A stretch of 63,696 nucleotides of DNA, filler included, from Collodictyon triciliatum (taxonomy: Eukaryota): NCBI GenBank assembly GCA_043381765.1. It is 9 parts of 9 records of this genome, joined end to end, with 100 filler letters (N's around TTAATTAATTAA, not from the genome) between each part and the next. Parts side by side here need not be neighbours in the genome. Positions count along the whole stretch, not along the records: positions 31,337 to 39,067 come from JBHJMP010003774.1; 8 more parts are not named here. One strand, given 5' to 3'. The position numbers and the translations under genes are program-made. This document shows positions 1 to 58,200 of the stretch, in pieces (position 1 is the first letter of the stretch; each line of letters opens with the position of its first letter). The notes under the pieces are model-generated. The model made no database searches and was not told the origin of the DNA. It was given only the letters and a program-made list of their open reading frames with translations.

Positions 1-124
1 TTCTTTTTCTTTTCTTTTTCTTTTTCTTTTTTTTTCTTTTTCTTTTTCTTTTCTTTTTCTTTTCTTTTTCTTTTCTTTTTCTTTTCTTTTTCTTTTCTTT
101 TTCTTTTCTTTTCTCTGAAAACAG

Positions 125-537
125 TTGTCAGTGTCAATGAGCTGGAGCCCATGTCACACGGACACAATCTTCGGGTGCAGGTGATCTCTGCCGAGGAGCC
201 AGTCAGCAAAGCCTCTGCTCTCGGCCCACCAGTAGTGAGTCGGGACGTGCTTGTGGGAGACCCAAGCGGCTGTGTTGTGTTGCAGCTGCGGAACGAACAG
301 ACCGAGTTTGCACTAGTTGGCCAGCGTCTTGTCATCCGCAACTCAAAGGTTGTGATGCAGCGTGGCTTCATGCGCCTTGCGGTCGATATGTGGGGCTCTG
401 TTGCTGTTGACACGGCCGATGCAGGCGCTGATGGCGACGCTTCTGTCAACACGGCAAACAACATCTCTCTTGTCGAGTACGAGCTTGTTCAGAACCCGGC
501 TGCTGCTGCTCCTTCATCTTCCTCTCCGCCTGCGTAG
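125..537 (+). CDS. Single OB-fold nucleic-acid-binding protein (At4g28440-like); last exon, 5' exon missing
   Basis: AG acceptor at 123-124, then (F)VSVNELEPMSHGHNLRVQV...LVGDPSGCVVLQLRNEQ...IRNSKVVMQRGFMRLAVDMWG...NNISLVEYELV, the pattern of this small OB-fold family; ends TAG. Confidence 0.8.
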
Positions 538-7741: not shown

Positions 7742-7841
7742 NNNNNNNNNNNNNNNNNNNNNNNNNNNNNNNNNNNNNNNNNNNNTTAATTAATTAANNN
7801 NNNNNNNNNNNNNNNNNNNNNNNNNNNNNNNNNNNNNNNNN
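7742..7841. other. Artificial contig spacer (44 N + TTAATTAATTAA + 44 N)
   Basis: Same spacer at 15573-15672, 23405-23504, 31237-31336, 39068-39167, 46909-47008, 54741-54840 and 61248-61347; the linker has stops in all six frames. Confidence 0.98.
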
Positions 7842-10800
7842 GGGGATAATACAATCAAAATATGGAATCTTTCCGATGGAACTTTGATTCGCACATTAAT
7901 TGGACACACAAGTGGTGTGTACAGTGTTGCAGTTACTCCTGATGACTCAAAAATTATTTCAGGAAGTGGAGATAATACAATCAAAGTTTGGAATCTTTCC
8001 GATGGAGCTTTGATTCGCACATTAACTGGACACACAAGTGGTGTTTACAGTGTTGCAGTTACTCCTGATGGCTCAAAAATTATTTCAGGAAGTGGGGATA
8101 ATACAATCAAAGTTTGGAATCTTTCCGATGGAACTTTGATTCGCACATTAATTGGACACACAAGTGGTGTGTACAGTGTTGCAGTTACTCCTGATGGCTC
8201 AAAAATTGTTTCTGGAAGTGCAGACTACACTGTAAGACTTTTGAATTTCTCTGATGGAAGTCTTATCTACACCAGAGGCTCCAAAGTTATGAGCATGACA
8301 TCTTCTCAGTCAAAATCAATTTTTATTTCAGGGCATTCAGACAGCAGCATCAGATTTTGGAATCTTTCGAATGGTAATTTAATCAGCTCATTTATTGGGC
8401 ATGCTGATGTCGTTAACACATTGACTTTTACACCAGATAACCAAAAAATAGTTTCCGGAGGTTCGGATAAGACAATAAACATTTGGAATGTAAATGATGG
8501 AGCTTTGATTCAATCAATACAAGTCCATACTGATTCAGTGAATTGTGTTACCATATCAACCGATGGAACAAAAATTGTTTCTGGAAGTACCGATAAAACA
8601 TTGAGAATTACAAATATATCTGACGGAAATATCATTCGTACATTAAATGGACACACTGGAACTATCATAAGTGTAGCTTTAACTCCTGATGACTCAAAAA
8701 TTGTTTCTGGAAGTGCTGATAAATCAATCATAATTTGGAGTTTTCTTGATGGAACATTAGTTCAGAATATAAAAATTCACACAGATTCTATAAACTCTGT
8801 TGCTATAACGCCAGATGGAAAGAAAATTGTTTCTGGCAGCAGCGATAGAACAATCAAAATAGCTAACATTTTAGATGGAAGCTTAATTCGCACACTCAAT
8901 GGGCACACAGGGATCGTTAAAACTGTTTCGATTTCTCCAGACGGCTCAAAGATTATTTCTGGAAGCAGTGACAAAACCATCAGAATTTGGAATTTTTCAA
9001 GCGGAGTCGCAATAAATATCATGAATGAACATGGAGTTACAATTAATGGAATTTCAGTTCTCTCTGATGGCTCAAAATTTCTCTCAGGAGGTGATGACAC
9101 TACAGTCAAATTGTGGAACTTTCCTGATTTCAGTTTGAGTTTGACAGTTTCAGGCCACACAAGTTCAGTCAATAGTGTTTTTTTAAGCCCAGATAAAACA
9201 AAAATTGTGTCAGGAAGTAGTGATAATACAATTAGAATCTGGAATTATGCCGATGGTTCTCAAGCTCTTTCAATAAATGCACATTCAAATTCTGTCAATA
9301 GTGTAGTTGTTTCGGCTGATGGAACAAAATTCGTGTCAGGAAGCAGTGATAAAACCGTAAAAAATTGGAATTTCTCGGATGGTTTATTATTGAGAACATT
9401 TAGCGGCCATACTGCAGCTGTTCGAAGCGTTGCAATGTCATCAGATAATTCTGTTTTAGTATCAGGAAGCGATGATATGAATATCAATATTTGGAGAGTT
9501 TCAGATGGAACTTTAACTCGTACCTTATCAGGTCATTCGAAAAGTGTGAATTCTGTTTTTATTACGCCAGATAATACCAAAATTATATCTGGAAGTGCCG
9601 ATTTTTCAATAAAAATATGGAATCTCTCAGATGGAGCATTAATTAGAACAATTACTGGCCACGGAAATGCCGTAAGATGTGTTATTACATCTCCAGACGG
9701 AACAAGAATCATATCTGGAAGCAGTGATAACACCATCAAAATTTGGAGCATGTCGGATGGCGTGCTAATCAGAACCCTGAATGGACACACAAGCTCAGTA
9801 AATAGCATTTCAGTATCATATGATGGAACAAAACTGTATTCTGGAAGCAGTGATAAAACGGTCAAAATATGGACAATATCAGACGGAAGAGAAATTCGAA
9901 CACTTCTGAGTCACACAGATTCTGTCAATAGTGTTTTCGCTACTTCAGATTCAAAAATAATTTCAGCAAGCACTGATAAATTCATCAAAGTATGGAGTCC
10001 ATGCCAAGGAGGATACTTTTTCAATCAACTGTCAAATTCATGCGAAAGATGTCCGACTGGCTCTTACAATAACGGAAACGAGCTCACCTCTTGTTTATTA
10101 TGTCCAACTGGAACTTACAATCCATCAACTGGTTCCACAAGCCTTAGAAATTGTCTTCTGTGTGAGGAAGGGACATACAATAATCTTTTGGGCCAATCAA
10201 TTTGCAAAAAATGCGAAGCTGGAACATTTAATAATCTTAAAGGTCAAAATTCATGTAATAATTGCACTGCTGGATTTTACAGTAATGAGGGAGATAGGTC
10301 TTGTACTCCGTGCCCGGCAGGAACATTCAATCCAAGCATTCGAGGTGCTGGAAACTCATCATGTATTTTATGTGAACCAGGAACATACAATAGTGTTGAT
10401 GGAAAGTCGAGTTGTTTCGAATGCCCTGCTGGGTTCTTCATGAATGAAAAAGGAAAGCAATTTTGTAGTCCATGCCTCACTGGTACTTACTCAAACAAAA
10501 CGAAATCAGTCAACTGTGAAAAATGCCCGGCTGGTTCTTACAATGCAAATGTTGCATCAACCAGTATAATCAATTGCCAGTCATGTCCAAAAGGAAGATT
10601 TTCATCAAAGTCAGGTGAATCAACTTGTGAACTTTGTCCATCTGGTTCATACAATCCATACCTTGATCAGAGTGGATGCATAAATTGCCCTGATGGAACT
10701 TACAATCCTCGATTTGGCTCCAGTTCAAATTCTTCATGTGCTAAATGCCCGATAGGAACATATGGAAATCAGCTTAGAGATGAATGCGTATCATGCCCAG

Positions 10801-13800
10801 CTGGTACATTCAACAACAAAACTGGCACAGCCAACAAATCATCATGCATATCATGTCCAGATGGAAGCTACAGCTCAGAAAGAAGCGCATCATGCAGCTT
10901 ATGCTCATCAGGATTTTATCAAAAAGAAGGCATCAGTAAAGACTCACAATCATGCTATGCTTGTCCAAAAGGCACATTCAACTCAAACTCCGGCTCATAT
11001 GGAAACACATCATGCATCGAATGTCCACAGGGCACTTGGAGTGATAGAGGTGGTCAGGTATCATGCACATCATGTCCAGCTGGTACATTCAACAATAAAA
11101 CTGGCACAGCCAACAAATCATCATGCATATCATGTCCAGATGGAAGCTACAGCTCAGAAAGAAGCGCATCATGCAGCTTATGTTCATCAGGATTCTATCA
11201 AAAAGATGGAATAATTAAAGATATTCAATCCTGCTACGCTTGTCCAATAGGCACATTCAACTCAAACTCCGGCTCACATGGAAACATATCATGTATTGAA
11301 TGTCCAAAAGGCACTTGGAATAATAGAAATGGTCAAACATCATGCAAATCATGTCCAGCTGGTACATTCAACAATCAAACTGGCTCATTCAATCCATCAT
11401 CATGCCTTTTATGTCATAATGGAAGCTACAGCTCAGAAAGAAGTGCATCATGCAGCTTATGTTCACCAGGATTCTACCAAAAAGAAGGTGTCACCAAAGA
11501 CTCTCAATCATGCTACGCTTGTCCAAAAGGCACATTCAACTCAAACTCGGGTTCATATGGAAACGCATCTTGCGTTGAATGTGCACAAGGTACTTGGAAT
11601 GATAGAGATAGTCAAGCATCATGCACATCATGTCCAGCTGGTACATTCAACGATAAAACTGGCTCATTCAATCCACCATCATGCATTTCATGTCCAAATG
11701 GAAGCTACAGCTCAGAAAGAAGCGCATCATGCACTTTATGCTCATCAGGATTCTATCAAAAAGATGGAATCACAAAAGACTCACAATCATGCTATGCTTG
11801 TCCAAAAGGAACATTCAACTCAAACTCCGGCTCATATGGATACAAATCATGTATCGAATGTCCAAAAGGCACTTGGAATGGCAAGGATGGTCAAGCATCA
11901 TGCACATCATGTCCAGCTGGTACATTCAACAACAAAACTGGCTCATTCAACCAATCATCATGCATGTCATGTCCAAATGGAAGCTACAGCTCAGAAAGAA
12001 GTGCATCATGCAGCTTATGCTCATCAGGATTCTATCAAAAAGAAAGCATAAAAAAAGACTCCAAATCATGCTATGCTTGTCCAGAAGGCACATTCAACTC
12101 AAACTCCGGCTCATATGGAAGCGTATCATGTATAGAATGTCCACAAGGCACTTGGAATGATAGAGAGGGTCAAGCATCATGTACATCATGTCCAGCTGGT
12201 ACATACAACGATAAAACTGGCTCATTCAATCAATCATGTATTTCATGTCCAAATGGAAGCTACAGCTCAGAAAGAAGTGCATCATGCAGCTTATGCTCAT
12301 CAGGATTCTATCAAAAAGATGGAATCACAAAAGACTCACAATCATGCTATGCTTGTCCAAAAGGCACATTCAACTCAAACTTTGGCTCTAATGGAAACAA
12401 ATCATGCATCGAATGTCCACAAGGCACTTGGAATGATAGAGATGGTCAAGCATCATGCACATCATGTCCAGTCGGAACATTCAACAACAAAACTGGCACA
12501 GCCAACAAATCATCATGCATTTCATGTCCAAATGGAAGCTACAGCTCAGAAAGAAGCGCATCATGCAGCTTATGCTCATCAGGATTATATCAAAAAGAAG
12601 GTGTCACAAAAGACTCGAACTCATGCTATGCTTGTCCAATAGGCACATTCAACTCAAACTCCGGCTCACATGGAAACTCGTCATGTATTGAATGTCCACA
12701 AGGCACTTGGAATGATAAAGATGGTCAAGCATCATGCACATCATGTCCAACTGGTACATTCAACAATAAAACTGGCTCAGCCAACCAATCATCATGTGTT
12801 TCATGTCCAAATGGAAGCTACAGCTCAGAAAGAAGTGCTTCGTGCAGCGTATGCTCATCAGGATTCTATCAAAAAGAAGGCATAATGAAAGACTCACAAT
12901 CATGCTCCACTTGTCCAAAAGGCACATTCAACTCAAACTCGGGCTCATATGGAAATTCATCATGTATTGAATGTCCACAAGGTACCTGGAATGATAGAGA
13001 TGGTCAAGCATCATGCACATCATGTCCAACTGGAACATTTAACAACAAAACTGGCTCATTCAATCAATCGTCATGCATTACATGTCCAAATGGAAGCTAC
13101 AGCTCCGAAAGGAGTTCATCATGCACTTTATGCTTATCAGGATTCTATCAAAAAGAAGACATCACAAAAGACATTCAATCCTGCTATGCTTGTCCAAAAG
13201 GAACATTCAACTCAAACTCGGGCTCATATGGAAACGAATCATGTATTGAATGTCCAAAAGGCACTTGGAATGATAGAGATGGTCAAGCATCATGTACATC
13301 GTGTCCAGCTGGTGCATTTAACAAAAAAACTGGCTCATTCAATCAATCATCATGTATTTCATGTCCGGATGGAAGCTACAGCTCAGAAAGAAGCTCATCA
13401 TGCACTTTATGCTCATCAGGATTCTACCAAAAAGAAGGAATCCCAAAAGACATTCAATCCTGCTACGCTTGTCCAAAAGGTACATTCAACTCAAACTCTG
13501 GCTCATATGGAAACAAATCATGTAATGAATGTCCACAAGGCACTTGGAATGATAGAGATGGTCAGGCATCATGCACATCATGTCCAGCTGGTACATTCAA
13601 CGATAAAACTGGCTCAATCGATCAATCATCATGCATTGAATGTCCAAAAGGAAGCTACAGCACAGAAAGAAGCGCATCATGCAGCTTATGTTCATCAGGA
13701 TTCTATCAAAAACAGGGAATCAAAAAAGACTCACGTTCATGTTATGCATGTCCAATAGGCACATTCAACTCAAACTCCGGTTCATATGACAACAAATCAT

Positions 13801-15572
13801 GTATCGAATGTCCACAAGGCACTTGGAATGACAAGGATGGTCAAGCATCATGCAAATCGTGTCCATCTGGTACATTCAATAACAAAACTGGCTCATTTAA
13901 TCAATCATCATGCATTCCATGTCCAAATGGAAGCTACAGCTCAGATAGAAGTGCATCATGCAGCTTATGTTTATCAGGATTCTATCAAAAAGATGGAATC
14001 ATTAAAGATATTCAATCATGCTATGCTTGTCCAATAGGCACATTCAACTCAAACTCTGGCTCACATGGCAATAAATCATGTAATGAATGTCCACAAGGTA
14101 CTTGGAATGATAGAGATGGTCAAACATCATGCACATCATGTCCAGCTGGTACATTCAACAATAAAATTGGTTCATTTGATGAATCATCATGTATTTCATG
14201 TCCAAATGGAAGCTACAGCTCAGAAAGAAGCTCATCATGCAGTCTATGCTCACCAGGATTCTATCAAAAAGAAGACATCATAAAAGACTCAAAATCATGT
14301 TATGCTTGTCCAAAAGGCACATTCAACTCAAACTCCGGCTCATATGGAAACAAATCATGCATTGAATGTGCACAAGGTACTTGGAATGATAGAGATGGTC
14401 AAGCATCATGCATATCATGTCTCGCTGGTACATTCAATGATAAAACTGGCTCATTCGATCAATCATCATGCACCTCATGTCCAAATGGAAGCTACAGCTC
14501 AGAAAGAAGCGCATCATGCAGCTTATGTTCATCAGGATTCTATCAAAAAGATGAAATTACAAAAGACTCAAAATCATGTTATGCTTGTCCAAAAGGCACA
14601 TTCAACTCAAACTCCGGCTCATATGGATACAAATCATGTATCGAATGTCCACAAGGTACTTGGAATGATAGAGATGGTCAAGCATCATGTACATCATGTC
14701 CAGCTGGTACATTCAACAATAAAAGTGGCTCATTTGATCAATCATCATGCATATCATGTCCAGATGGAAGCTACAGCTCAGAGAGAAGCGCATCATGCAG
14801 CTTATGCTCATCAGGATTCTATCAAAAAGATGGAATCATTAAAGATATTCAATCCTGCTACGCTTGTCCAATAGGCACATTCAACTCAAACTCCGGCTCA
14901 TATGGAAACAAATCATGCATCGAATGTCCACAAGGCACTTGGAATGATAGAGATGGTCAAGCATCATGCACATCATGTCCAGCTGGAACATTTAACAACA
15001 AAACTGGCACAGTCAACAAATCATCATGTATCTCATGTCCGAATGGAAGCTACAGCTCAGAGAGAAGCGCATCATGCAGCTTATGTTCACCAGGATTCTA
15101 TCAAAAAGATGGTGTCACCAAAGACTCTCAATCATGCTACGCTTGTCCAAAAGGCACATTCAACTCAAACTCCGGCTCATATGGAAATATATCATGCATC
15201 GAATGTCCACAAGGCACTTGGAATGACAAAGATGGTCAAGCATCATGCACATCATGTCCAGCTGGTGCATTTAACAACAAAACTGGCTCATTCAATCAAT
15301 CATCATGTATTTCATGTCCAAATGGAAGCTACAGCTCAGAGAGAAGTTTATCATGCACTTTATGCTCATCAGGATTCTATCAAAAAGATGGAATCACAAA
15401 AGACTCAAAATCATGCTACGCTTGTCCAAAAGGTACATTCAACTCAAACTCCGGCTCATATGGAAATTCATCATGTATTGAATGTCCACAAGGTACTTGG
15501 AATGATAGAGATGGTCAGGCATCATGCACATCATGTCCAGCCGGAACATTCAATAATAAAACTGGTTCATTT
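7842..15572 (+). CDS. Giant WD40-repeat plus Cys-rich (ephrin-receptor-like/GCC2-GCC3-type) repeat protein, partial at both ends, intronless
   Basis: One open frame across the whole contig. At least 17 WD repeats of ~42 aa (GHTSGVYSVAVTPDGSKIISGSGDNTIKVWN) to ~10000, then CxxCPxGTY/F units. Confidence 0.92.
10790..15572 (+). repeat. Coding tandem array of 279-bp (93-aa) units, about 17 copies
   Basis: ATGGAAGCTACAGC recurs at 10861, 11140 and onward with 279-bp period; one unit has a 3-bp deletion near 12235. Confidence 0.95.
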
Positions 15573-15872
15573 NNNNNNNNNNNNNNNNNNNNNNNNNNNN
15601 NNNNNNNNNNNNNNNNTTAATTAATTAANNNNNNNNNNNNNNNNNNNNNNNNNNNNNNNNNNNNNNNNNNNNAAATAATAATAATAAAATAATAATAATA
15701 AAATAATAATAATAAAATAATAATAATAAAATAATAATAATAATAAAATAATAATAAAATAATAATAATAAAATAATAATAATAAAATAATAAAATAATA
15801 AAATAATAATAAAATAATAAATAATTAAAATAATTAAACGAATGGATTGTGCGTTTCATTAATTAGTAAAGT

Positions 15873-17629: not shown

Positions 17630-20600
17630 GAACTCAAAGTCCACATCTTCCTGAGGAGGGATAATACCAAGTGCGCCGCGGTTCTGATGGGGATATGGTC
17701 GATAAGTTTTCAAATCCGCACCCACTATTTTCGTTGTAAATCAATTGTGAGGACCGCTCACAAAAATCCTTCTCTCTATCTTCTTTTATTTTTTTGTTCA
17801 ATAAGGCGATAGAAAAGATTATACCGAGTCCAGTGGTGGAATAGAGCCCTGTAATAACACATGTTTTTTTTTTAATTTTAAGAAAAGTAAATAAATTCAG
17901 CAAGATAAATTAAGGAAAGATATGTGTCATGCTTATGGAGGTTACTTATGACTGAGAGCTTACATCTGCATATTTTCCTTTCAGGCGGATGTCGAAGTGG
18001 TGGAGGAGCATCACGAGGAAGACTTTTATTTCGTTTTTTGCAAAAAATCTTCCGGGGCACATGGAAACACCACCGCCAAAAGGAATAAACGCATTCTTTA
18101 CGACCTAGGTTCCAGAGAATGTTGTAAGAAATATTTTCCTTTTTTAGAGACAGTTATTTTCTAAACAAAACCCTTAAAAATATTCTTGAAACGAATATCT
18201 TAATTCTTACTTTGCCGTTTTTCTTGAAGACAGGCTCTGCATTAGGATCTGCTCCAGGCAGAAGCTGAGGAGCGAAGCGGTATGGATCGTATTTTTTGGG
18301 TTCTGGGAAGATTTCTGGGTCCATATGAAAGATATTTGGGAAAACTGCCAGGAAAGTACCTTTTGGAATAGAGTATGTCTTGTCCTTCACATATAACACA
18401 CGGTAGACGTCAGAAATCTTTCGAGTAACTTCGAAATAATATACATTGCGACAAACAGAATAGAAAGCGAGATAATCAAGAGAATCCAAAATGAAAGGAT
18501 GATCGAGGGGAGATTCGTAAGAGGATACATTTCCCCCTTTATTCCATTCAAAGTCGTAAGAGGATAAGTTAAGCAATCAACAAAAAACTCACAGTGCATT
18601 TTAGTTCATAATCCTTCACAGCTTGCCTGAGTGTTAAAGAGAATCCAACCAGGCGGAGGGTTTCGTTTATACAGGCATCAATCAGAGGCATTTTTCCTGT
18701 ATTGAACTGAACGAGTGGGACTCTTTCCTATGCATCGATGTTTCACTAGTCAAACAGCATGGTCATCGATATGTATATCAATTACTCAGATGGTAGAAGT
18801 TAAGTCGAGATTCTTACAGTCTCACTTGGAATACTCTCTTGAATAGACGACTCAATCTAAATTTATTATGGTTTACAATCATTCCTGTCTTAGATAACGT
18901 CATTCTGATCTATGAAGGTTAAAAAAAAACAAGAAAAAAAGGGACAAGGTTGGGTTACCTCTTTCAATACTGACTTCAACAATGCGGGGTCTTTCAGAAT
19001 GTAAAACGCTGTCCAAAAGACGGCAGGGATAGTATTCGCTTGGGAGGCCCATAGAAGTGCAAGCTAAAATAGACGTTGACATAAATTGATTAGGGTTGTT
19101 TCTTCAGAGGGAAGCGGTATTGTGCTTTCAAAAATCTTAATCATGTCATTTCCATAAGCAATTTAGTTGAATATAAGTGGAAATAAAAAAAACTTAAAAT
19201 TAAGCAGATTTTCGTTATACACCTGAATATCAGATATCTTCAGGTTTTCATTCGTGTATTTGCTCAAAACACGATGGCGTTCTGAAATGAAAGTACATGT
19301 CTATGGTGGGATTATAATTGAAAACACTTTTTAAAGGATGACCAAACAATTGAAATACGGTTAAAATTGATCAGATCATAACCCTTGGTACGCGAAATTA
19401 AGAGAAAAGGAGAAAAAAANNNNNNNNNNNNNNNNNNNNNNNNNNNNNNNNNNNNNNNNNNNNNNNNNNNNNNNNNNNNNNNNNNNNNNNNNNNNNNNNN
19501 NNNNNNNNNNNNNNNNNNNNNNNNNNNNNNNNNNNNNNNNNNNNNNNNNNNNNNNNNNNNNNNNNNNNNNNNNNNNNNNNNNNNNNNNNNNNNNNNNNNN
19601 NNNNNNNNNNNNNNNNNNNNNNNNNNNNNNNNNNNNNNNNNNNNNNNNNNNNNNNNNNNNNNNNNNNNNNNNNNNNNNNNNNNNNNNNNNNNNNNNNNNN
19701 NNNNNNNNNNNNNNNNNNNNNNNNNNNNNNNNNNNNNNNNNNNNNNNNNNNNNNNNNAATACGGCTTCAAATAAGCTTTAGAATCATATATCGATTCTTT
19801 CTTGCTTGACCCTTGAACAAATGAGGAATGGAACTACCTTAAATGTTTGCCAGGCGTGGTTGCTAAAGAACTTATTCCCAAAAATCGCATTTGAAGAAGA
19901 TTCGAAGATGATGCGATGTACAAAATCGTAAAATCCAGACGTGTATGCTGTCCATTCTTTTGTCGGCTTCAAGTATTCATAGAGACAGTCCTCCATCCCG
20001 ATCTGCATATTCACCGTCATTTCTTTCAAGGAGGATCCTTGGAGATGCCTATTTTCAAACAGGAGGAGAACATCACTATCAACTAGAACGATTTTGAGCA
20101 TAACTAGTGGTAAAAGCCACTGAAAGTCGGAGAAGGGCTTGGGTGCGAGGAAAAACAACTGACTTGTTGTATATCTGATGCAATTCATCATCGGCAGAGA
20201 CATAGACATCAGAGTCCATTTTGAAAACATTCATGGAGATGTCCTTAGCTATTTCTGCGAAGCTGAGAGCCTGTCGAGCAAAATAATATGAATGACAATA
20301 GAATTTATGTGCGTGTGATTCATCGCCTCGAATAATTTGGGACCCTTTATTTTTTTTATGGAGCCGAAAAGGATAGTAATCCCTTACACGGTCTGTCAGC
20401 ACGGTTGTGATGGCCAGGGGATCCAAGACAAAAGTCATCTATTCCAGAGAAGTTTAAATAGAGAAAAATGCTTTGAGGGCTGAAGTCAGCTGAATGAAAT
20501 CACGCAACGTAGTTGAGTTACAGTGACACTCACTTGTCTGCCAGATATCAGCAGCGTGAAAACATCACCAGCTTGCTTCTGAAACCGTCTCATGAGCCCG

Positions 20601-20803
20601 TAGCCATCTCTCGAAAATTCAATGGCAAAGCCCAGGAACGGGACGTACCCGCGGAAAACTGGTGGTGTGTTCTCTGAGAGACATCGTCCGTCAAACAAGC
20701 GGACAAAAGCCACATACGCCAGCGGAATCAGAAGCACAGCCGCAGCAACAATCGAAGTCCAGGCTGCGCTGCCCAAGGACAAGTCATGGACAAGAGTCTC
20801 CAT
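17630..20803 (-). CDS. Cytochrome P450, CYP7/CYP8 clan-like, about 13 exons; spans N-gap 19420-19757; final codons unresolved
   Basis: N-terminal TM anchor plus PPVFRGYVPFLGFAIEF; I-helix LALLWASQANTIPAVFW; ETLRL; PKKYDPYRF; heme motif PFGGGVSMCPGRFFAKNEIKVFLVMLLHHFD; C-terminal IPPLDS|NRGALGIIPP. Confidence 0.92.
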
Positions 20804-21334
20804 GAAACCTGTGCCTTTCGAGCCGGTGATGCTTAGTTTTTGGTTGGTGTGGTCAGGAGTTGGGTAGGGGCTGTTGCTGGCCTAGCAAAAGAAAAGAAAA
20901 AAGAAAAGAAAAAAGAAAAAAAAAAGAAAAAAAAGAAAAAAAGAAAAAACAAAGTAAAGAAAAAAAAGGAAAAAAGGAAAAAAAGGAAAAAAAGGAAAAA
21001 AAGGAAAGAAAAAAGAAAAAAGAAACAGGAGAAAAGAAAAAAAGAAAAGAACAGTGGAGCGAGCGGGACAAGAGACCCGAGGAGCCCGCCTTACTCACAG
21101 ACAAAGTCTTCCTGTGGGAGAAGCAGACTCTCTTTGGCCTGTGGCTTCCAAGTGCCCGAGGCGGACAAATTACCGCAGCGAATCCCACGGGAAAAACCTG
21201 AACCCTGGGAGGAGGGAAAATTGGTACGCCTGATTTCCCATCATGACACGCCATATGAGGCATGATGAACGGAGACTTGGCGCCCAAGGCAGCAGGCTCG
21301 TTTGTGTGAAAGAGAAGGGAAGGAGAGCGGGACT

Positions 21335-23262
21335 TTATTTCTTTTGGAATATCATGTCAATCATAGCCTGTATTTTGGCTGGGCGAAGAAACTCCGAGTC
21401 GGTGATTATGTTTGTCAGGATGATCGTGTTTTTGTGGCTTTGCGAGTTAATCCAAACACGCCCGTTTGCTCCGCATGCGATTTCAAAAGGGATGCGTTTT
21501 CCAAGTTCCTGGAGTACGAAGCAATCTGGTAGCATCAGACTGCAAAAGTTTATAAAGTCAGGAAACAGGGAAGATTAAATTAATGTCTCGGCTATTTATT
21601 TTTACCTGATATGCGTTGTAGTTAACATAGTGAGTGCGTGAAAATATAAACAAGCATTTACATCAATTAGCCACCAACGCAACATATGAATAAATGAACA
21701 GAAGAATAAATCGGTTGAAAGAAACAACAAATATATATATATATAAGAATAATTAACTCAACCTTCTTGACAGCGCTTGGCTGCATTCGAACATATATCC
21801 ATCTTTGAGCTCTCCAAACCCTTCAGATCGGTTTGTGGGTGCATAGCAAACAAGTTCAGGCTCCAAATCTTTGTTCGCCAGAACTACTCTGGCATACACC
21901 AAATTTCCCACCTGGTAGCATACAGTAAATCGGTGACGATTTCTTTATTGATATTCACAATTTGCGTATGATGAAACCACATTGAGGCTTGTTCGGTATA
22001 TAATTAAGATAAATAGGTGACATATCAACCTGGAGGTTGGGCTTATTTCTTTTTGTAGCGCCTTCGAACGCAATATTGGGCAGTATAGCGTAGGCATTGC
22101 AGCCAATATCAACCTGAAAGTAAATGCAATGACACAAATAATGATGGTATGAATTGCTTCGTCTGTTAATCAGATTCTATAAGCACTTATGATAAGAGCC
22201 GAAGAAATCAAAGGAAATGTCAAGATGTCGGTCTCTTAGGATAACATTATAAAACACAAACCTTGTAATAATCCATGAATCGTTCCACAATTACACCAAC
22301 GACTTGATCTTCCATGGCTGGCACATACTGCAATTGTAGAATAGTGAGATAAAAAAAGCCATATAAACAAGGTAGTTTTAAAATGGTAAGGTCTATCATG
22401 AAGGAATAATATCGTGCGATGTTTTACAGACATATCGCTCTACAAGCAATAGTCTAAAGACAACAGTAATTGTCTCACAGCTTATCCACATAAAAGGTTA
22501 AGCGTGACGCAATTATTCAAAGAAACCATCCTTCATACATAGTATCAACAATTGATGATGAAGTGTTGCTGCATATATCATGGTAATAGTAAAAAATAAA
22601 ATAAAAAAATAATTACAATTACAATTGCAAGGGAGGGAAAAAAAGCATTTAAAAATACACAAACACACAAACATGAACAACATGGCATCGGCACAAACCC
22701 TCTTCGTGGAGTGGTCAATCCAGTACTTCGTCCCTTTGCGAGACTGTTGGATGCGCACGACGCCTGAGCGTGAGGAGATAATCTGACTCTGGACCTGCCT
22801 GATTCCCGGACCGATGATGACGGAAGGCTTCTCAGGAACGAGGCCAGAGTCTTCCGTGTGCGTCCCGTCAACTTTGCTCACGCGCTTCTTCTTTGCAGCC
22901 CCAGCAGCAACGGGCAGACACTCGAATGTCCGAAGAACATCACCAGGCAGAATGCCTTGCGCGTATTCCCTGAGGATCCTTTGGTTGGGCGCTTCGTCGT
23001 CCTTCGGCTTGCTTTCGGCCGTGTGGTCTGTCTCGTCTGCGCTTGACTCGTCGGCCTCGGCGCTCTCGCTCGGATCTGCGCCTTCGTCCTCCTGGGCCAC
23101 CGGCTCGGCTTCGGGCAGTTCCTCGGTAAACTCGATCAGCTCTTCCGGCTCGTGTTTGAGTTCCTTGGCACTGTGGTGTCTGGGCGTTGTCTGTGGCTGG
23201 GCGCTCATGCTGTGAAGACGCGGGGGACTTGGTTGGGGAGTGTTTTCAGTTTTCAAAAGCAT
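21335..23262 (-). CDS. RRP40: Exosome complex component RRP40 (EXOSC3), 5 exons; start at 23262 or 23208
   Basis: IGPGIRQ...YWIDHSTKR|YVPAMEDQVVGVIVER...AFEGATKRNKPNLQ|VGNLVYARVVLANKDLEPEL...GFGELKDG...IPFEIACGANGRVWI; all introns GT-AG. Confidence 0.93.
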
Positions 23263-23308
23263 AAGACTGCCTTTTTTTTTCTTTCTTGTGTGACTATGTG
23301 TGTGTGAT

Positions 23309-31037: not shown

Positions 31038-31336
31038 AAGGTGATGATATATACTAATTGGAGAAGCAGGAATTATATGAAATGGAATTATTATCGTCAT
31101 CATGCGAATGAATGGATAAAGAACACCTCTCTCTTTTTTTTCTCTTTTTTTTCTCTTTTTTTCTCTTTTTTTCTCTTTTTTTCTCTTTTTTTCTCTTTTT
31201 CTCTTTTTCTCTTTTTCTCTTTTTCTCTTTTTTTCTNNNNNNNNNNNNNNNNNNNNNNNNNNNNNNNNNNNNNNNNNNNNTTAATTAATTAANNNNNNNN
31301 NNNNNNNNNNNNNNNNNNNNNNNNNNNNNNNNNNNN

Positions 31337-31886
31337 CAGAGAGCTGTGGATAGGTGCGCGCGTAGTCCATGCAGCAACGACCTCCCCAGAATGCACCATG
31401 TGCCATAGTGGAGATGACTCTATCGAACACACATTTGTGGAGTGCTCTCTTGCTCAAAAAGTGACAGAATCTACCGACAAGATGCTCTCTGGACTTGATT
31501 ATGCTCCCAATCAACTCAGCGCGTCAGACATCCTGTTTGGCTCACAATACCAAATGACCCACGACTCTAGAATACTCCGGACAGTCACAAGGGGACATAT
31601 GATGTGGTTCTTATGGAGTGTGCGCGCATTATCTCGCTCTAATGATTCACTCGAACGAGAAATCAATGTATCCAAGCTGGAAAGCCTCGTGCAATACAGC
31701 TTTTTGAACAGCTTGCTGAAACACGCTCGCATTCTTCGCTACTCTGACCGCAAGCGAAGAGAGATGCAGGAATGTGTCGTGCGATATCTCCACAGCACAT
31801 CCAACCCCTGCTACCCACGCAACCAATCAACCAGTTGGGCCGCCCATATGACCAGCTCGCTATCACTGATTTCTTTCCGGTGCTAG
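31337..31886 (+). mobile_element. Non-LTR retrotransposon (L1/Tx1-like) ORF2 3' end with zinc knuckle
   Basis: Intronless; ECTMCHSGDDSIEHTFVEC (CX2CX8HX4C) followed by ILFG and MWFLWSVR, typical of L1-clade ORF2 C-termini. Confidence 0.8.
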
Positions 31887-32014
31887 CCTCTCCACGGTAG
31901 TGTCTTCTCTTACTCACGTTTGCTGTCTACCATGCGCTCCCATCCCGCCCCTTTATATGGCATAACCTCGCAGCACTTTGAATCGAATAAAGGAAAAATA
32001 AATTTTTGATTGTT

Positions 32015-32155
32015 GGTTAGATTGCCAGGGGCTGAGCCATGTTTCTTGGAGGCAGATGATGTCTGCGTGAGAGAAAAGAGCAGTGTTTAGGGCCTCTTTT
32101 CTTTTTTGGGGGTCGTTAATCCCCCTAACATCCACGACACAATGTTAAAATGCAT
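32015..32155 (-). mobile_element. Degenerate LINE AP-endonuclease N-terminal fragment
   Basis: NIVSW/(N)VRGINDPQKRKEAL...ADIICLQETW, with a 1-nt frameshift in the SWNVRG motif. Confidence 0.75.
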
Positions 32156-32912
32156 GAATAGTCTATTGGTCCTTCCATGGACAAATTGAAAATTTATCTC
32201 GACTAGCACCATCTTGATTTATTGAGGAATCAAGGAAACACGGATATCTGACGAACATAAAATGAGGTAGTCAGGTAGATGGGAAAAGAGTTGAATTTAA
32301 TAAAATTTGTGTTGTATCGATAATCTTTTATTTTATTATTCTTCCTTTCAATTTTGTGCACGATGGTGGAGATGAGCCCCCCTTTGTTGTTTCGTGCTGC
32401 ATATATTACCTTGTTTAAAGTATTCGTTTTCTTTGCCTTGGTGGTTTAAAAAAAAGGGAGCCCCAAAGGAATGCTGTCGATGAAGGGTAGCGGAGGGAAC
32501 TACGCGACGAACGTGCCTCAAGCAATGGTGGGGGCCACCAAGTTTCTTCATACTGCGCATTTGGTCATTGCTACCAGCGCAATGTTTCTTGGGTTAGACG
32601 GAGGTGACATGACGAAGCTTTTGACTTTCATGAATTATGTAATGTAATTTTTTTTTTTTTTATTAATTTGATGAAGGGGGAATCGGCCACGCCACCAAGC
32701 AGAGGGTTCGTAACAGTGAGAGAAAGAGGTGTATTGTAGGGTTAAAGTTATGCGGCAGTTCTGATTTCAATACATTATATCATGTGGTCCTTTGGAGAGG
32801 TCGGCAGTCAAGGCAGCATAGGGTTAAGGATGGAAGTGAAAAAAAGAAAAGCGAGCCGCACTGACAGACACTTGATAAGGGAAAAAAATCTGCCCGTAGT
32901 GCATCTTGGGAT

Positions 32913-35900
32913 TTAAGGGAAGATTCCAGCCATTTCATAATCGGTGGCTATCTTCTCCACGGAAATGAGGTAAGCGGCTGTGCGGTGGTCACATTTCTAG
33001 GGGCGAGGAACAAAAAAACAGAGGACAACATCAGAAGAATTATATGAATGATAAGAAAGTATGCGGTATATCGCGCAAGACCAATGAGGAACGAATATCT
33101 GAACAAAGCTAATTTTCATTCCTCAAAGTATATTCGCGCAAAAGTTTCTGGTCGAGTGTGGAAACCTTTTCATGGGCGACACGGTGGACATTGGCGCAGG
33201 CCTCAATCATGGTATCCTCCAGACCAGAGCGAACAAGCTTCTCTTCATCGGCTCCCCAGGCAAAGGCGCCCTAACAAACAGAACGAATTTCAATTAATTT
33301 TGTTTTCCTTATTTCGATTCAAAGTGTAGCGAGGTTATGCCATACAACGGGGCGAGATGGGAGTTCAATTAATTTTTCTTAATATTTGGCCCATAGTAAT
33401 TACAATATGTTTTTTCTCTTGTTGCGCCCCTATATACAATGAGCAAATAATACCTTCTCTTGGACGGTGAGCTTACGACCGAATTGGTTCTCAAGAAGGT
33501 CAACAATCTCCTCCTTGGCTTTGATTTCGACTTGGCGGGTCTGATAACAAGAATCATATTTAGTGTGGTCATACGGATTTTGTCCTCTTCGTTGGTGAGT
33601 AGTGAAGTGATGGTAATGGCAGGCTTGGAAGAGGAACAAACCAGGCGACCAAAGCGAACGTGCGAAAGATTCTTCAGCCACTCGAAATACGAGACGATGT
33701 TGGATGGTTAAGGGAAACCTCCTTACTGATAAATGGAAGAGTGGTGAAATATGGGCACAATATACAACAATCGGAGAAATTACTATATTGAAGAATTGGG
33801 AATGACAACATTAATTAAGGATATGACTCCGCCAGAGTTAAGGAGGAGGTCGGGGATGATGATGACACCCTTCTTGACCAGCAAGTCGTGGGCCTTTGCT
33901 GTGACAGGGCCGTTGGCAGCCTCGGCGATGACCTTGGCCTTGATACGGTCAGCGTTGTCCAGGGTGATTTGACCTTCCAAAGCTGCGGGAATCAGAACAT
34001 CGCAGGGGATTTCCAAAGCCTTTAGATTGTTAAAAGTGAAAATGAGATTTGATTGTAACTTTATCTCTTCTTATTTTCTGCTCGCTTCATTAATTATAAT
34101 CAAATTCAAAAAAGAAAAGGAAAGAAGAGGACTGCTACCATGCAATAATACCATTTCAGTATGACGGAAAAACTGTTGCAGAGAATCGTACCTCGAGACC
34201 GTTCTTGAGAACCTTTGCGCCAGGGTAACCAAGAATGGAGCCGCTGCTTTCCTTAACGCGATTGATAAGCTCGGGGTCAAGTCCGTCTTCCTTATAGATA
34301 GCGCCGTTGTACTCTGCAACAGCGATGACCTTCCCTCCGTGCTCATGCATAAACTTTCCAGAGAAGGAGCCAACGTTACCCCAACCTATATTGGACAAAT
34401 AAACCGAACGTTGAAGAAATAGTGCAAGCGAAGCAGTTGTATAGAGGGAGGTGGCATGTATCACATATCTATTTGAGGTGAAGTTAGTAAACTGTTAATC
34501 TTACCTTGAATGACGAAGGTCTTTCCTTTGATACCCTCAGTAATGCCTGTGGCATTTCCGTGATTAATGCGGAGGAACTCACGAATACCAAACAAGACTC
34601 CAAGACCTATTCAAGAATATTATCTTGTCAGAAAAAAGTGGTCTATGCCGTACTTGTTCTCTTTGAAAGTATGAAGAAATACTCCACCATTCCGCGCAAA
34701 ATTGAAAGGAAGAACAAACAAAAAAATATGAAGAAAAGGAAATACACCTGTGGCCAGGTTGCGACCGCGCACACCACCCATGGGGACAGGCTTTCCGGTT
34801 ACGCAGGCAGCTCGCTCAAGGCTGTTGGGATGCAGTGCCTCATAAGTATCCTATAAAGCCATGTGGTTATGTATGGCGCTTGACAAGAGCAAGTGGCATG
34901 ATACTTAGTCATAATAGTAATAGTAATCTATCAACACAAAGGATGCTTCCATATGGAATGAATCCTGTGGGACGAACCTTGATCCAGGCCATCTCACGAG
35001 GTCCAGTTCCGACATCGGGGGCAGGCTAATTTTCATGTACGAGTAGTTAAATTTCTAAGTGGGACACATCGAACCGTTGACTCAATGGAAATATAAAAAA
35101 AGTAATGGAATAAAAAGTAAAGCGAGCGACCTTTTGTAGGGAAAAGATAAAGACAGGCGCTTTCGCCAATTTTTATTTAGTTTTTCATACCACATCGGTA
35201 GCCGGGCCAATGAAGCCCTTCTTGGAGAGCTCTGTGGTGTAGCGGCGAGTAATGTGCTCAAGCTCGCGCTCATTGAATTCCTTGGGATCAATCTTGATGC
35301 CACCCTTGGCACCTTCGATGTAAAGATGCCAGATTCAGTATGATTAGCCAAAAGTGCGACGCCTGGTTTGTTGCTTGATTTTGACTGCTTATGTTATGTT
35401 CACAAGAGGACTATTAACATAGTCTTGATCGAGGAGAAGGTGTATGTATAGATATAGAGGAAGAAGACTATGAAAGACCTCCAAAAGGCACGTCCACCAA
35501 AGCACACTTGTAGGTCATGAGGGCAGCAAGAGCCTGGACCTCCTCAGCGTGGACCATGGGGCTGTAACGGATGCCTCCCTTCTGCGGGCTGCGATGCTGG
35601 GAGTGCTGTGCGCGCCACGCCTCAATCATGACGATTTCTCCGTTGGTTTTCTGCGAATGCCACAGCAGCCAGGGTTATTGACACCATGGTTAGAAAAGAT
35701 TATTTATGTGTCAACATACATCCACTGCCGCAAGGTCAGAGATATATATAAGAGCAAGGGCTGAGGCCGGGAAGCAGAGCGACCATACCTTGATGGGGAA
35801 GTTGAGGTGGAGCATTGCGCGGCAGCTGCGGATGTTCTCAAGGAGGCCAGGCGAGCGGTTTGTCAGGCCAGCAGCGCGCTTGAAGAAGATTTCGACGCTC

Positions 35901-36079
35901 TGCAGAAAGTCTGCGTCGCCCTGGGCTGTGGTGCTGGACATGGCACGTCCAAGGGCCGGGCTGCATTGTTTGAGAAAAAGGGTGAACACATATGCATATG
36001 AGAGGGGTGACAGCAGGCTGGATTCGGGGAATGAAGGAGCGGGCACTTACCGCCCAACGAGGAAGCGGGAGAGTGGCAT
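32913..36079 (-). CDS. GLUD1: Glutamate dehydrogenase (mitochondrial GLUD-type), 12 exons
   Basis: AWRAQHS...[82 protein letters not shown]; Arg/Ser-rich N-terminus resembling a transit peptide; TAA at 32913-32915. Confidence 0.96.
33699..33824 (-). other. U12-type (minor spliceosomal) AT-AC intron in GDH
   Basis: Minus strand: GGC GGA GTC|ATATCCTTAA...TTTCCCTTAACCATCCAAC|ATC GTC TCG TAT; perfect U12 donor, branch point CCTTAAC 8 nt before the 3' end, AC acceptor. Confidence 0.93.
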
Positions 36080-36643
36080 TCGGCGAGCGGCCTTGTCTGG
36101 TGGCGATCTAAGTATGCGCATGAGTGAGTGTGTTTGCACCACTGCTCTGTTTTACTCTCCTTCTTGCCGGCCGATACTTGGCTCGGAGTCTTGTGTGGAT
36201 CCGGTCTGATTCATCAGGGCTGCGTGATTTATACCCGACGACTCTTCGCTGCGGTGGTGGTGTGTCCAAAGAACATTCGCTGCCTGTTTGAATTGGCGGG
36301 CATTCATGGAATTTAAGGCTGGGGCTGCGGCTTTGCCGGCGATTCCAGAATTGTGCTGGGGCTCTAGAAGGGCATGGCGCTTAGGCGTCTCTTTTCTGGA
36401 ATTTACAGTCCCGTTACGCTGGCTCATCGCTTGCTACCGTCTGCAGGGGCACACTCTCGCCATAATGTCAATATTTTTTTTTCTTCATTCGATTAAAAGT
36501 TTGCCATAATGTCAATATAGTCTCCCTGTCTGAACTGCGGCTTGTGGGTTGCAAATTTATTATTGAAACATTGTGCTAGTCGTGACAGGAGAGGAGTAAA
36601 GATTTGATAGCGTGTGCGAGAGAGGTGGGTGCGGGTGTGGGGC

Positions 36644-37087
36644 TTAAGCGGGTGTTCCGGAGCCGTTGTACTTGCTGACGGCCTTTGTGCCTTCCGAGAC
36701 GGCGTGCTTGGCCAGCTCTCCGGGCAGAATCAGACGGACGGATGTCTGAACCTCACGCGAAGTCAGGGTGCCGCGCTTGTTGATGCGGGCAAGTCGGCCG
36801 GCTTCGGAGGCAATGCGGTCGAAGGTGTCATTGATGAACGAGTTCATGATGGCCATTGCGCGCTGCGAGATTCCGGTCTTGGGGTGGACTTGCTGCAGCA
36901 CTTTGTAGATGTAGGACGAGTATGTCTCGGCACGCTTGATGCGACGCTTCTTGACTTCCGACGAGTCCGTAGTCGACTTCTTGACGGTCTTGGAGGCAAC
37001 CTTCTCGGGCGCGGCGGTGCCTTCCTTGGCTGCTGATGTGGCGGGTGACTTCGAGGGCTTCTTTCCGGCTCCGGGCTTGGGTGGCAT
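36644..37087 (-). CDS. H2B: Histone H2B, intronless
   Basis: [10 protein letters not shown]...[46 protein letters not shown]...[38 protein letters not shown] downstream near 36556-36561. Confidence 0.97.
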
Positions 37088-55015: not shown

Positions 55016-55224
55016 GGAATATTCAGCCAAGGAAGTCAAGAAACATCAATACAGATCGACAAACGAAAACAAAGAAACACTAACTCAAATCCAGTAACAA
55101 CACTCGCCCATCGATCGAATCTCCTCCTCTGCCACTGATTTTGCTATTCTCAATCCTTTTTTTTTTCTACATCCCTGTTTTATTGTCTCTTCTACTCAAA
55201 AAGAAAAAAAGGAGAGAAAAAGTC

Positions 55225-58200
55225 ATGGAGCCAGTCAATTCAGATCCAAAGCGCCGCGGACGAACAAGCACAAACACAATGGAAAACACAGTCACAAACG
55301 CACGCAGCCGCACAGCCAAGCAGAGGCAGAATCCAAATCCAAATCCAAATCCAAGTCTAAATCACTTGGCAAACTTTCATACAAACCCGGCCATGATGAA
55401 CCATCATCACGCACCGACATTCACATCTGATATCACATCAGCGTTCGCCAACGGTGATCACGCATCACTATCACACAAATCAGCGCCGTCGTTCTCTTCT
55501 CTGCTGAACGGAGCCCCAATGCACATTGCCGATATCCCATTCGAATATCCCTTAATGCCAAAGGATGCCACCAACGCAGGCAAATCTGCACAGCACCCAA
55601 AAAAGACGCATGTGCGTGTAGTGGAGTCGACATCCTTGAACTTTGTGTCGGAGTCTTCATTTGATTCGGAGCTCTCAGACATGTCATCATCAGACTCATC
55701 ATCGTCCTCGTCGTCATCTGATTCATCTGATTCATCCGGGTCAGAGTTGCGGTCCCGGTCGTCATCAGCATCAGCATCAGCATCGGGTTTGTCGAACCTT
55801 TCATCATCACAGCAGCAGCATCAGCAGCAGACAGGAACATCCAAGCCAAAGAAGCCTCGGTCGAGATCCAAGCGCGAAGGCAAGGCAAAGATAGAGCCGT
55901 GGACTGAAGAGGAGGATTTGCTTTTGAAGGCTGTCGTGGGTCAGCATCATGGGCGCAATTGGAAGAAAGTTGCAGAGTGTCTGCCTGGACGGACGGATGT
56001 CCAGTGCCTTCATCGTTGGCAGAAAGTGATTAATCCGCAGCTGATCAAGGGGTCTTGGTCCAAGGAGGTTGGTCTTTATCCATGTCGTCTATCGAGAAAG
56101 AAAAGGAAAATCTGCACCACAACTTGCTACAACATTATAAGTTGTTTTATTAGTATTATTTATTCCATGTTGATTTTTATTTACCCATATGTGCATAGGA
56201 GGATGAGAATTTGATTAGGCTGGTGGAAAAGTTTGGGCCCAAATCATGGGCTCATATTGCATCCCACTTCCGCGGGCGAATTGGAAAGCAATGCCGAGAG
56301 CGCTGGTTCAATCACCTGAGCCCTGATGTGAAGAAAGATGCGTGGACAACGCTGGAGGAAGGAATCATGATTGAGGTGCACGAGGTTTTGGGCAATCGCT
56401 GGGCGGAAATAGCAAAATATCTTCCAGGTCGATCAGACAATGCGATAAAGAACCGATGGAACTCCACGGTCAAAAAACGTGTGATGGCCATGAAAGAATC
56501 GGGGACTCCTCTCCCAACTGGTCTCGTCGATTGGAATGCTTCTCAATCGAACACTCACAATTCCAGCAGCGCTCACGTCTCTTCAGATCCATCGAAAACA
56601 AAACCCTCGACCCATGGAAATGCAGCGGTGGCGGCGGCTATTCATCTAAATCAACATTTAAATGGATCTCTTTCATCAGCACCTAACCTGGATGACATCA
56701 ACCCTGCTTTCAACGCATTAACCAATGTAAACAAGCGGAGCTCTTCGATTCCTGTCTCTCATCTGACAGTCTTCAATTACATACAACCGCCTCATATCAT
56801 CGCGCCATCCTCGTCGTATGTAACAGCAGCATCTTCTACTGGGCATGATTCAAGTCCATCTTCAAAGAAGTTGTTACTTCCCTCATGCAAGGAATTATCA
56901 AAAGTATCGCTGAAACGAAAGTCTGCACGGGACTCATCCGCTCATGCTGGGAGCGACACCGACTGTATGATTCTTTATTATGTATTTTGTGTGGGAAACC
57001 TGTTCATTTTCTATGTCGTTGATGTATTATTCTTTTGCAAGTTTTGTATTGACCGCCATAGAAATTATGTATGGTGAAAAAAATTAACTATATTTCTCTT
57101 CTTGCTTTTCTTGCTTTTCTTGCTTTTCTTGCTTTTCTTGCTTTTCTTGCTTTTCTTGCTTTTCTTGCTTTTCTTGCTTTTCTTGCTTTTCTTGCTTTTC
57201 TTTTGGATAAAAGCACCAGAGTTGAATGCCCAAAATACAAACGGAAAGAAGGGGAGAACCACCTCCATCAAGAAATCAAAGCCGCCGATTATCGAGTCGC
57301 TCCGGAACATACTACCAAGAGAACTGTCTCTTGGCCTTGTTGAAGACAAAGATGAGCCGCTTCCAATCACACCCGTACAAAACGATGGGGACGATTTAAG
57401 GCTCTCATCAGACATGCCATTTCTTTCGCCAGTACGCTCATCTTCGTATAACTCTCTTCTTCGGCTGCGAGGAACACACCCAGGCGGCACGGAATCGCCC
57501 AGTCCGCTGAAATATACCCCAACCAGATTGCGAACACCCACACCAAGATCGAGTGAACATTCGCAGGTTTGGCCTATTAAACCCTATTCGTGTTGATGCC
57601 TTGAATTGATATATACATATGTATATAATTGTCATATTACGATGTAAGAATCCTCATGTGTGTAAGGCAAGTGAATAGAGAATGAAAGCTTCTGCTCCTT
57701 ATTGAATATATTGAAGGGGAAAGAAATAATAACTTGGATATAGTTGTTTTGTTTTGTTTTTATTCACGTTATGGGTATTGAATAAATTCTAGGACTCTTT
57801 CGATTATATGTTCGGCCCTACGAGCTCTTTGGCTGGCCCTATTCCCCTATTTTGTGACAGCAGAGCAACCAGTGGACATGATACCAGTGGCCCTGCCTCG
57901 GCTTGGTCGTCGCACCAAAATGCAGTGTCTTCGTCTTCTTCTCATCCGTCGTTTCTGACATCTTCAAATAGCGCTTTCTGTGCGCCCATGCAATTCTACA
58001 ACAAGACAGAACGGTCTATCACACCATCAGTTTTTGAAGAAATGTCATTTAGGTCTGTTTGTTGCTTTGTTGCTTTGTTACTTTGTTACTTTGTTACTTT
58101 GTTACTTTGTTACTTTGTTACTTTGTTACTTTGTTACTTTGTTACTTTGTTACTTTGTTACTTTGTTACTTTGTTAGTTTTGTTAGTTTTGTTAGTTTTT

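Follow-up and report, generated by a model that had tools for sequence, protein, structure and literature searches.

Minor (U12-type) introns are rare among eukaryotes and have been retained in a patchy fashion, and a single well-supported example can bear on whether an organism has a second spliceosome. That question is raised by a glutamate dehydrogenase (GDH) gene on the minus strand of the 63.7-kb stretch of DNA analysed here (the window, along which all positions are counted). Intron 9 of this gene, at 33699..33824, begins with AT and ends with AC. We consider it, in all likelihood, a true AT-AC intron of the U12-dependent, minor-spliceosome type, because its donor is not U2-like, both U12 signals are in place and the neighbouring introns lack the TCCTT element. 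Its exact removal is seen in assembled RNA from four public runs. The original prediction had placed an AT-AC intron inside the GGV|IVSYFEW motif of GDH, had found no GT-AG solution for it and had raised lineage-specific gain or an elevated rate of U12-type introns as an explanation. As set out below, the first two claims held, and the third found no support.

Splice signals of intron 9

Intron 9 is 126 nucleotides (nt) long, of phase 0 and 34% G+C, against 56% in the GDH exons. It falls in the same length class as the neighbouring introns, and it is the only AT-AC intron among the 12 of the gene. The upstream exon ends at 33825 with ...AACTCTGGCGGAGTC (N S G G V; in a longer reading, ...CCCGACCTCCTCCTTAACTCTGGCGGAGTC), and the downstream exon starts at 33698 with ATCGTCTCGTATTTCGAGTGG (I V S Y F E W; in a longer reading, ATCGTCTCGTATTTCGAGTGGCTG, for I V S Y F E W L). 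The 5' splice site, ATATCCTT at 33817..33824 on the minus strand, matches the U12-type consensus [G/A]TATCCTT at all eight positions, +1 to +8. Near the other end, the branch-point sequence CCCTTAAC at 33707..33714 (minus strand, in the context TTTCCCTTAAC) matches TCCTTAAC at seven of eight positions, with the candidate branch A at 33709 or 33708, 10-11 nt ahead of the first exon base. The intron closes with ...CATCCAAC, its 3' terminal dinucleotide AC lying at 33699..33700 on the same strand. The consensus sequences used, [G/A]TATCCTT for the donor and TTCCTT[G/A]AC or TCCTTAAC for the branch, are those of PMC2831892 and bioRxiv 10.1101/2020.10.12.336362.

The sequence around the acceptor restricts how the exons can be joined. 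An in-frame TAA lies at 33710-33708, 10-12 nt before exon 10, and there is no AG in the 9 nt between this stop and the exon (CCATCCAAC). If intron 9 were retained, translation reading on from the upstream exon would meet a stop after 14 codons.

Removal of intron 9 in RNA

The stretch 32900-36100 was partly present in 20 of 23 listed public runs, with 18 recorded as RNA and a best word share of 0.30. These runs came from 16 studies and were labelled freshwater or lake-water metatranscriptomes. RNA contigs were aligned from four runs of four studies (X1, X4, X5 and X7), and each of the four runs held a contig joining 33696 to 33823, in which exactly 126 nt were skipped and the shorter side measured 55 nt. 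The proposed junction across 33699/33824 is thus present in RNA. The joint has an ambiguity of 3 nt, giving four equivalent cuts, which on the coding strand read AT-AT, TA-CA, AT-AC and CA-AA. GT-AG is not among them, and of the four only AT-AC is a recognised pair; together with the missing AG between the TAA and exon 10, this bears out the view that no GT-AG solution exists.

Protein records agree with the RNA. The joined exons restore the motif GGV[TVI]VSYFEW, which was carried by 23 of 24 homologues checked (P0078 falls outside the pattern used). The independent protein P0002 reads GGVIVSYFEW over the intron 9 junction; P0001 and P0002 both contain ...NSGGVIVSYFEW..., and P0004, from a relative with 80% identity, contains NSGGVVVSYFEW. 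The minus-strand sequence, the RNA joints, the Pfam matches of the gene and P0002 support an AT-AC intron inside GGV|IVSYFEW of a GDH.

A loose end at 33680 in run X7 deserves mention in its own right. Here the contig of a related organism's GDH messenger RNA aligns to part of exon 10 and continues, encoding ...AGGVVVSYFE. A second, related and spliced GDH is therefore present in the same lake sample.

The host gene and its other introns

The GDH coding region spans 32913..36079 on the minus strand, with the start ATG at 36079-36077 and the TAA stop at 32915-32913. Its 13 coding exons and 12 introns give a model of 1470 nt, or 489 codons plus the stop. Exon joints were taken from the RNA contigs, except that of intron 1, which was set by direct reading of the sequence. 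P0002, a 489-residue protein assembled independently from a metatranscriptome and held in a public collection, agrees with the model at all but two of its residues (487 of 489). Both mismatches lie in exon 1 (36051-36079), where residue 2 is P in the window and S in P0002, and residue 8 is V against A. Together with several single-base differences among the four RNA runs, they point to strain variation.

Judged by its sequence, the gene is a GLUD-like glutamate dehydrogenase of the Glu/Leu/Phe/Val dehydrogenase family. All four exons tested matched PF02812 (ELFV_dehydrog_N) or PF00208 (ELFV_dehydrog), with E from 6.8e-10 to 1.2e-21, and the gene had 8000 homologues at E<=0.001. The two exons that flank intron 9 are well defined. 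Exon 9 (33825..34019, minus strand, 65 codons) matched Pfam ELFV_dehydrog at E 1.9e-21; its best PDB matches were mitochondrial GLUD2 and GLUD1 (E about 1e-18), and it aligned to residues 372-435 of the 558-residue GLUD1 chains, its own last residue corresponding to residue 435. Exon 10 (33642..33698, minus strand) has 19 codons, and both of its joints are present in RNA contigs.

The 11 introns other than intron 9 are all GT-AG and 90-183 nt long. Their donors are weak and diverse (GTAAGT, GTATGG, GTCTTT, GTTCGT and others), and the TCCTT element occurs in none of them; intron 9 consequently stands in a separate signal class. In the table of RNA joints, 10 of these 11 are plain GT-AG. The remaining one, the 5'-most, belongs to intron 1, a 90-nt GTAAGT...CAG intron that adjoins the two polymorphic codons and whose joint is tabled with two letters between.

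In intron 6 (34607-34747), a contig from run X4 runs into the intron at 34682. In intron 11, in X4 only, short contig pieces of very high depth (bin means 533-940) lie at 33303-33363. Their flanks do not match on either side, and the pieces resemble hits from some other abundant transcript or a repeat. In the 80% relative, the isoform P0003 has a reading frame that starts in an intron homologous to intron 6, and the isoform P0004 runs into an intron homologous to intron 11. At least the positions of introns 6 and 11 are therefore shared with this relative, an observation that is silent on intron 9. Taken with the X4 contig, the read-through in P0003 and P0004 possibly also reflects recurrent retention.

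Interpretation of intron 9

If intron 9 is removed as established members of its class are, U11 small nuclear RNA (snRNA) would pair with the extended donor ATATCCTT, and U12 snRNA would pair with the branch (T)CCCTTAAC, leaving a bulged A 10-11 nt from the acceptor. U6atac would then take the place of U11 at the donor, and cuts at GTC|AT and AC|ATC would join GGV in frame to IVSYFEW. The pairings and the dependence on small nuclear ribonucleoproteins (snRNPs) are taken from established knowledge of the class, and what we observed directly are the signals, their spacing and the precise removal in RNA. Were minor snRNPs to remove intron 9 in this way, the organism would have retained them. A working minor spliceosome is thus strongly implied, from intron 9 alone.

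Several points weigh against this reading. The branch sequence departs once from the consensus (C for T, or an extra C). Intron 9 is of phase 0, and minor introns are classically biased away from that phase (PMC10639083). U11, U12, U4atac, U6atac and the minor-specific proteins are inferred from one intron, and the window gave no Rfam match, and so no snRNA, either at the gathering score or at E<=1. The RNA evidence consists of assembled contigs, from which rare forms are dropped, so that it speaks to the spliced form and not to efficiency or retention; we saw no contigs on intron 9 itself in the four runs, which is not informative on retention. Finally, the motifs themselves occur in the window at chance level. 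RTATCCTT was observed 5 times against 4.29 expected, with 45 of 100 shuffles reaching 5; TCCTTRAY was observed 14 times against 11.68 expected; and the composite pattern of donor, branch and AC or AG occurred once, and was present one or more times in 99 of 300 first-order Markov simulations. Intron 9 is more than a chance occurrence because its signals sit exactly at a frame-restoring, RNA-supported junction in a conserved motif.

No U12 candidate in the window other than intron 9 is credible. The other ATATCCTT sites (5295-, 24541+, 25158- and 38712+) lack either a credible upstream coding frame or a partner branch and acceptor. Two relaxed donors, 43436+ and 51702+, have surroundings that are non-coding or antisense, and the candidates 18528- and 18335- do not fit the exon limits of a cytochrome P450 gene, limits that were themselves inferred from Pfam coordinates. 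The remaining relaxed-motif candidates were set aside on spacing or strand alone.

An AT-AC intron need not depend on the minor spliceosome. It might instead be removed by the major (U2-type) spliceosome, as the "type II" AT-AC introns are, in an organism that has lost minor splicing. Such introns are real, 24 having been described in five species in PMC1557818. The lack of any minor-spliceosome component among our findings, including the absence of Rfam matches throughout the 63.7 kb, would suit this explanation, and for Guillardia theta PMC11347168 describes minor-looking introns where minor snRNA genes were not detected. However, what defines a U2-type AT-AC intron is a donor that, its first base aside, is a good U2-type site (PMC1557818), whereas the donor of intron 9, ATATCCTT, is the full 8-nt U12 consensus and is accompanied by a correctly spaced U12 branch motif. 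Nothing similar occurs in the 11 U2-type introns of the gene, and both extended signals would be unlikely to persist if no machinery read them. We consequently regard removal by the major spliceosome as very improbable. An artefact is more improbable still, to the point of being negligible. The junction could in principle have arisen because the window was misassembled or through template switching at microhomology during complementary DNA synthesis; in favour of this are the 3-nt ambiguity at the joint and RNA evidence that comes entirely from assembled contigs. Yet all four runs, from four studies, share this joint, and an independent protein record has it as well. The joint puts a conserved motif back in frame where retention would bring a stop after 14 codons, and an overlap of 3 nt is what chance would give.

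A further explanation accepts minor splicing and concerns the history of the intron. Intron 9 could be one of many minor introns in a genome where they have expanded greatly, as in Physarum, or be a recent lineage-specific gain, as the original prediction had suggested. One in 12 introns of the gene is U12-type, the host gene is missing from the human minor-intron tables that were searched, and intron 9 is of phase 0 and falls in the length class of its neighbours, all of which would fit such a history. Against it, there is one credible candidate in 63.7 kb, no rate can be derived from one intron, and the signals of intron 9 are canonical, whereas those of Physarum are described as transformed (bioRxiv 10.1101/2020.10.12.336362). 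Expansion or recent gain therefore seems highly unlikely, and the idea of a lineage-specific gain or elevated U12 rate is left unsupported by a window with a single credible candidate. We return to the interpretation of intron 9 as an ordinary U12-type intron, which, verified in RNA, makes it very probable that an abundant freshwater organism keeps a second spliceosome.

Relatives of the gene and comparison of intron positions

The nearest GDH is a EukProt transcriptome protein with 80% identity. The named relatives, all about 52-57% identical, come from dictyostelids, Allomyces, a chytrid, bryophytes, Closterium and Bacteroidota. A FastTree phylogeny of 119 of 121 proteins (P0001 and P0003 were omitted as fragments) placed the query and P0004 together, their sister being a "tig..." EukProt record plus one from MMETSP (support 0.96). 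This four-member group stood beside the streptophytes (support 0.94), apart from the fungi and dictyostelids. The "tig..." identifiers may be those of a glaucophyte, and the "SM..." identifiers those of Spirogloea. The tree offers at most a loose placement of the organism. In the ESM Atlas, H2B and GDH matched no more than generic clusters of eukaryotes.

What intron 9 would mean for the distribution of minor splicing depends on that placement. Ochrophyta, Alveolata and Discoba reportedly lack minor introns (PMC10639083), and for Cryptista, Haptista, Excavata and TSAR the distribution has been called relatively uncharacterised (PMC11347168). It is doubtful, on the sequences at hand, that the organism comes from a deep-branching freshwater lineage whose minor splicing is uncharacterised or believed to be missing (e.g., Cryptista, Haptista, Ochrophyta or an orphan group). 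If it did, intron 9 would be the first transcript-verified U12-type intron there and would indicate that the minor spliceosome was kept. The finding would carry more weight if the lineage proved to be one thought to lack minor splicing.

To compare intron positions, a metagenome scan was made, from which 80 loci were kept. In 79 of them GDH is uninterrupted over the gene, about 51-55% identical to the query and bacterial-looking. Only locus L002, 82-90% identical to GDH proteins of the moss Ceratodon, has an intron in GDH. This intron (1003-1185 of the locus) runs from GTAAGT to CAG, is U2-type, of phase 0 and about 180 nt long, and lies between LLNA and GGVTVSYFEW. It is 9 nt (three codons) upstream of the AT-AC site and is not at the same site. 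An old shared intron at the AT-AC site is neither supported nor excluded by L002. The literature gave no precedent: a full-text search brought up no account of a GDH with a U12 intron, the one paper listed for both U12-type and glutamate dehydrogenase being on Giardia snRNAs, and neither GLUD1 nor "glutamate dehydrogenase" appeared in the minor-intron supplements of PMC6717393 (eight files), PMC10639083 (one file) and PMC7367187 (one very small file), which are possibly incomplete.

Other features of the window

The window holds several further genes. A cytochrome P450 gene with multiple exons occupies 17900-20900 (-), and its N-terminal exon had no homologue by word search. The exosome component Rrp40 lies at 21300-23300 (-), an intron-less histone H2B at 36647-37087 (-), a three-repeat Myb protein at 55084-57074 (+) and an SSB-like OB-fold protein at 1-534 (+). 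ARAGORN found no transfer RNAs in the window.

Between N gaps, positions 7794-15620 (+) form an uninterrupted frame of 2608 codons, intron-less in contrast to the 12 introns of GDH. It encodes WD40 beta-propellers followed by many tandem cysteine-rich Ephrin_rec_like (PF07699) repeats. At 31293-32144 there are fragments resembling a non-LTR (long terminal repeat) retrotransposon, with an open frame whose Cys/His-rich tail adjoins an N gap; the other strand of the same interval has a weak Exo_endo_phos match (E 9e-4) below the Pfam cut-off.

Comparison with known systems

Intron 9 provides no new mechanism and carries no information on gain, loss or expansion. It can be set beside other AT-AC and minor introns. 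The type II AT-AC introns, such as those of SCN4A and SCN5A (PMC1557818), share the AT-AC ends; unlike that of intron 9, their donor is U2-like, and they have no U12 branch motif. The moss-like GDH of L002 also has a phase-0 intron in the same conserved stretch, but that intron is U2-type and lies 9 nt upstream.

Among protists, Physarum polycephalum offers a parallel in that a minor intron occurs in an ordinary metabolic gene and has a length like that of its neighbours (bioRxiv 10.1101/2020.10.12.336362). According to that source, however, the minor introns of Physarum number more than 20,000 and their signals are transformed, whereas the window holds one canonical case in 63.7 kb and no sign of expansion. 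In Blastocystis, 77% of minor introns are AT-AC and 49% are of phase 0, both being enriched, and intron 9 shares both features. The Blastocystis introns average about 42 base pairs (PMC10639083), in contrast to the 126 nt of intron 9, and we found no link of the organism to Blastocystis.

Intron 9 can also be compared with the canonical U12-type AT-AC class of animals and plants, whose definition goes back to Hall and Padgett and to Tarn and Steitz (PMC2831892 and PMC10639083). Like intron 9, members of this class have the donor ATATCCTT at +1 to +8, a TCCTTAAC-like branch near the acceptor and an AC end, with no need for AG, and they occur, as in the GDH gene, as a single such intron amid many U2-type introns. 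Intron 9 differs in its host, the GDH of a freshwater eukaryote, in its phase 0 and in the one deviation of its branch, CCCTTAAC, and it is known from sequence and RNA joints. Intron 9 is a sound but rather unremarkable addition to an intron class already known, and it adds glutamate dehydrogenase to the genes that host U12-type introns.

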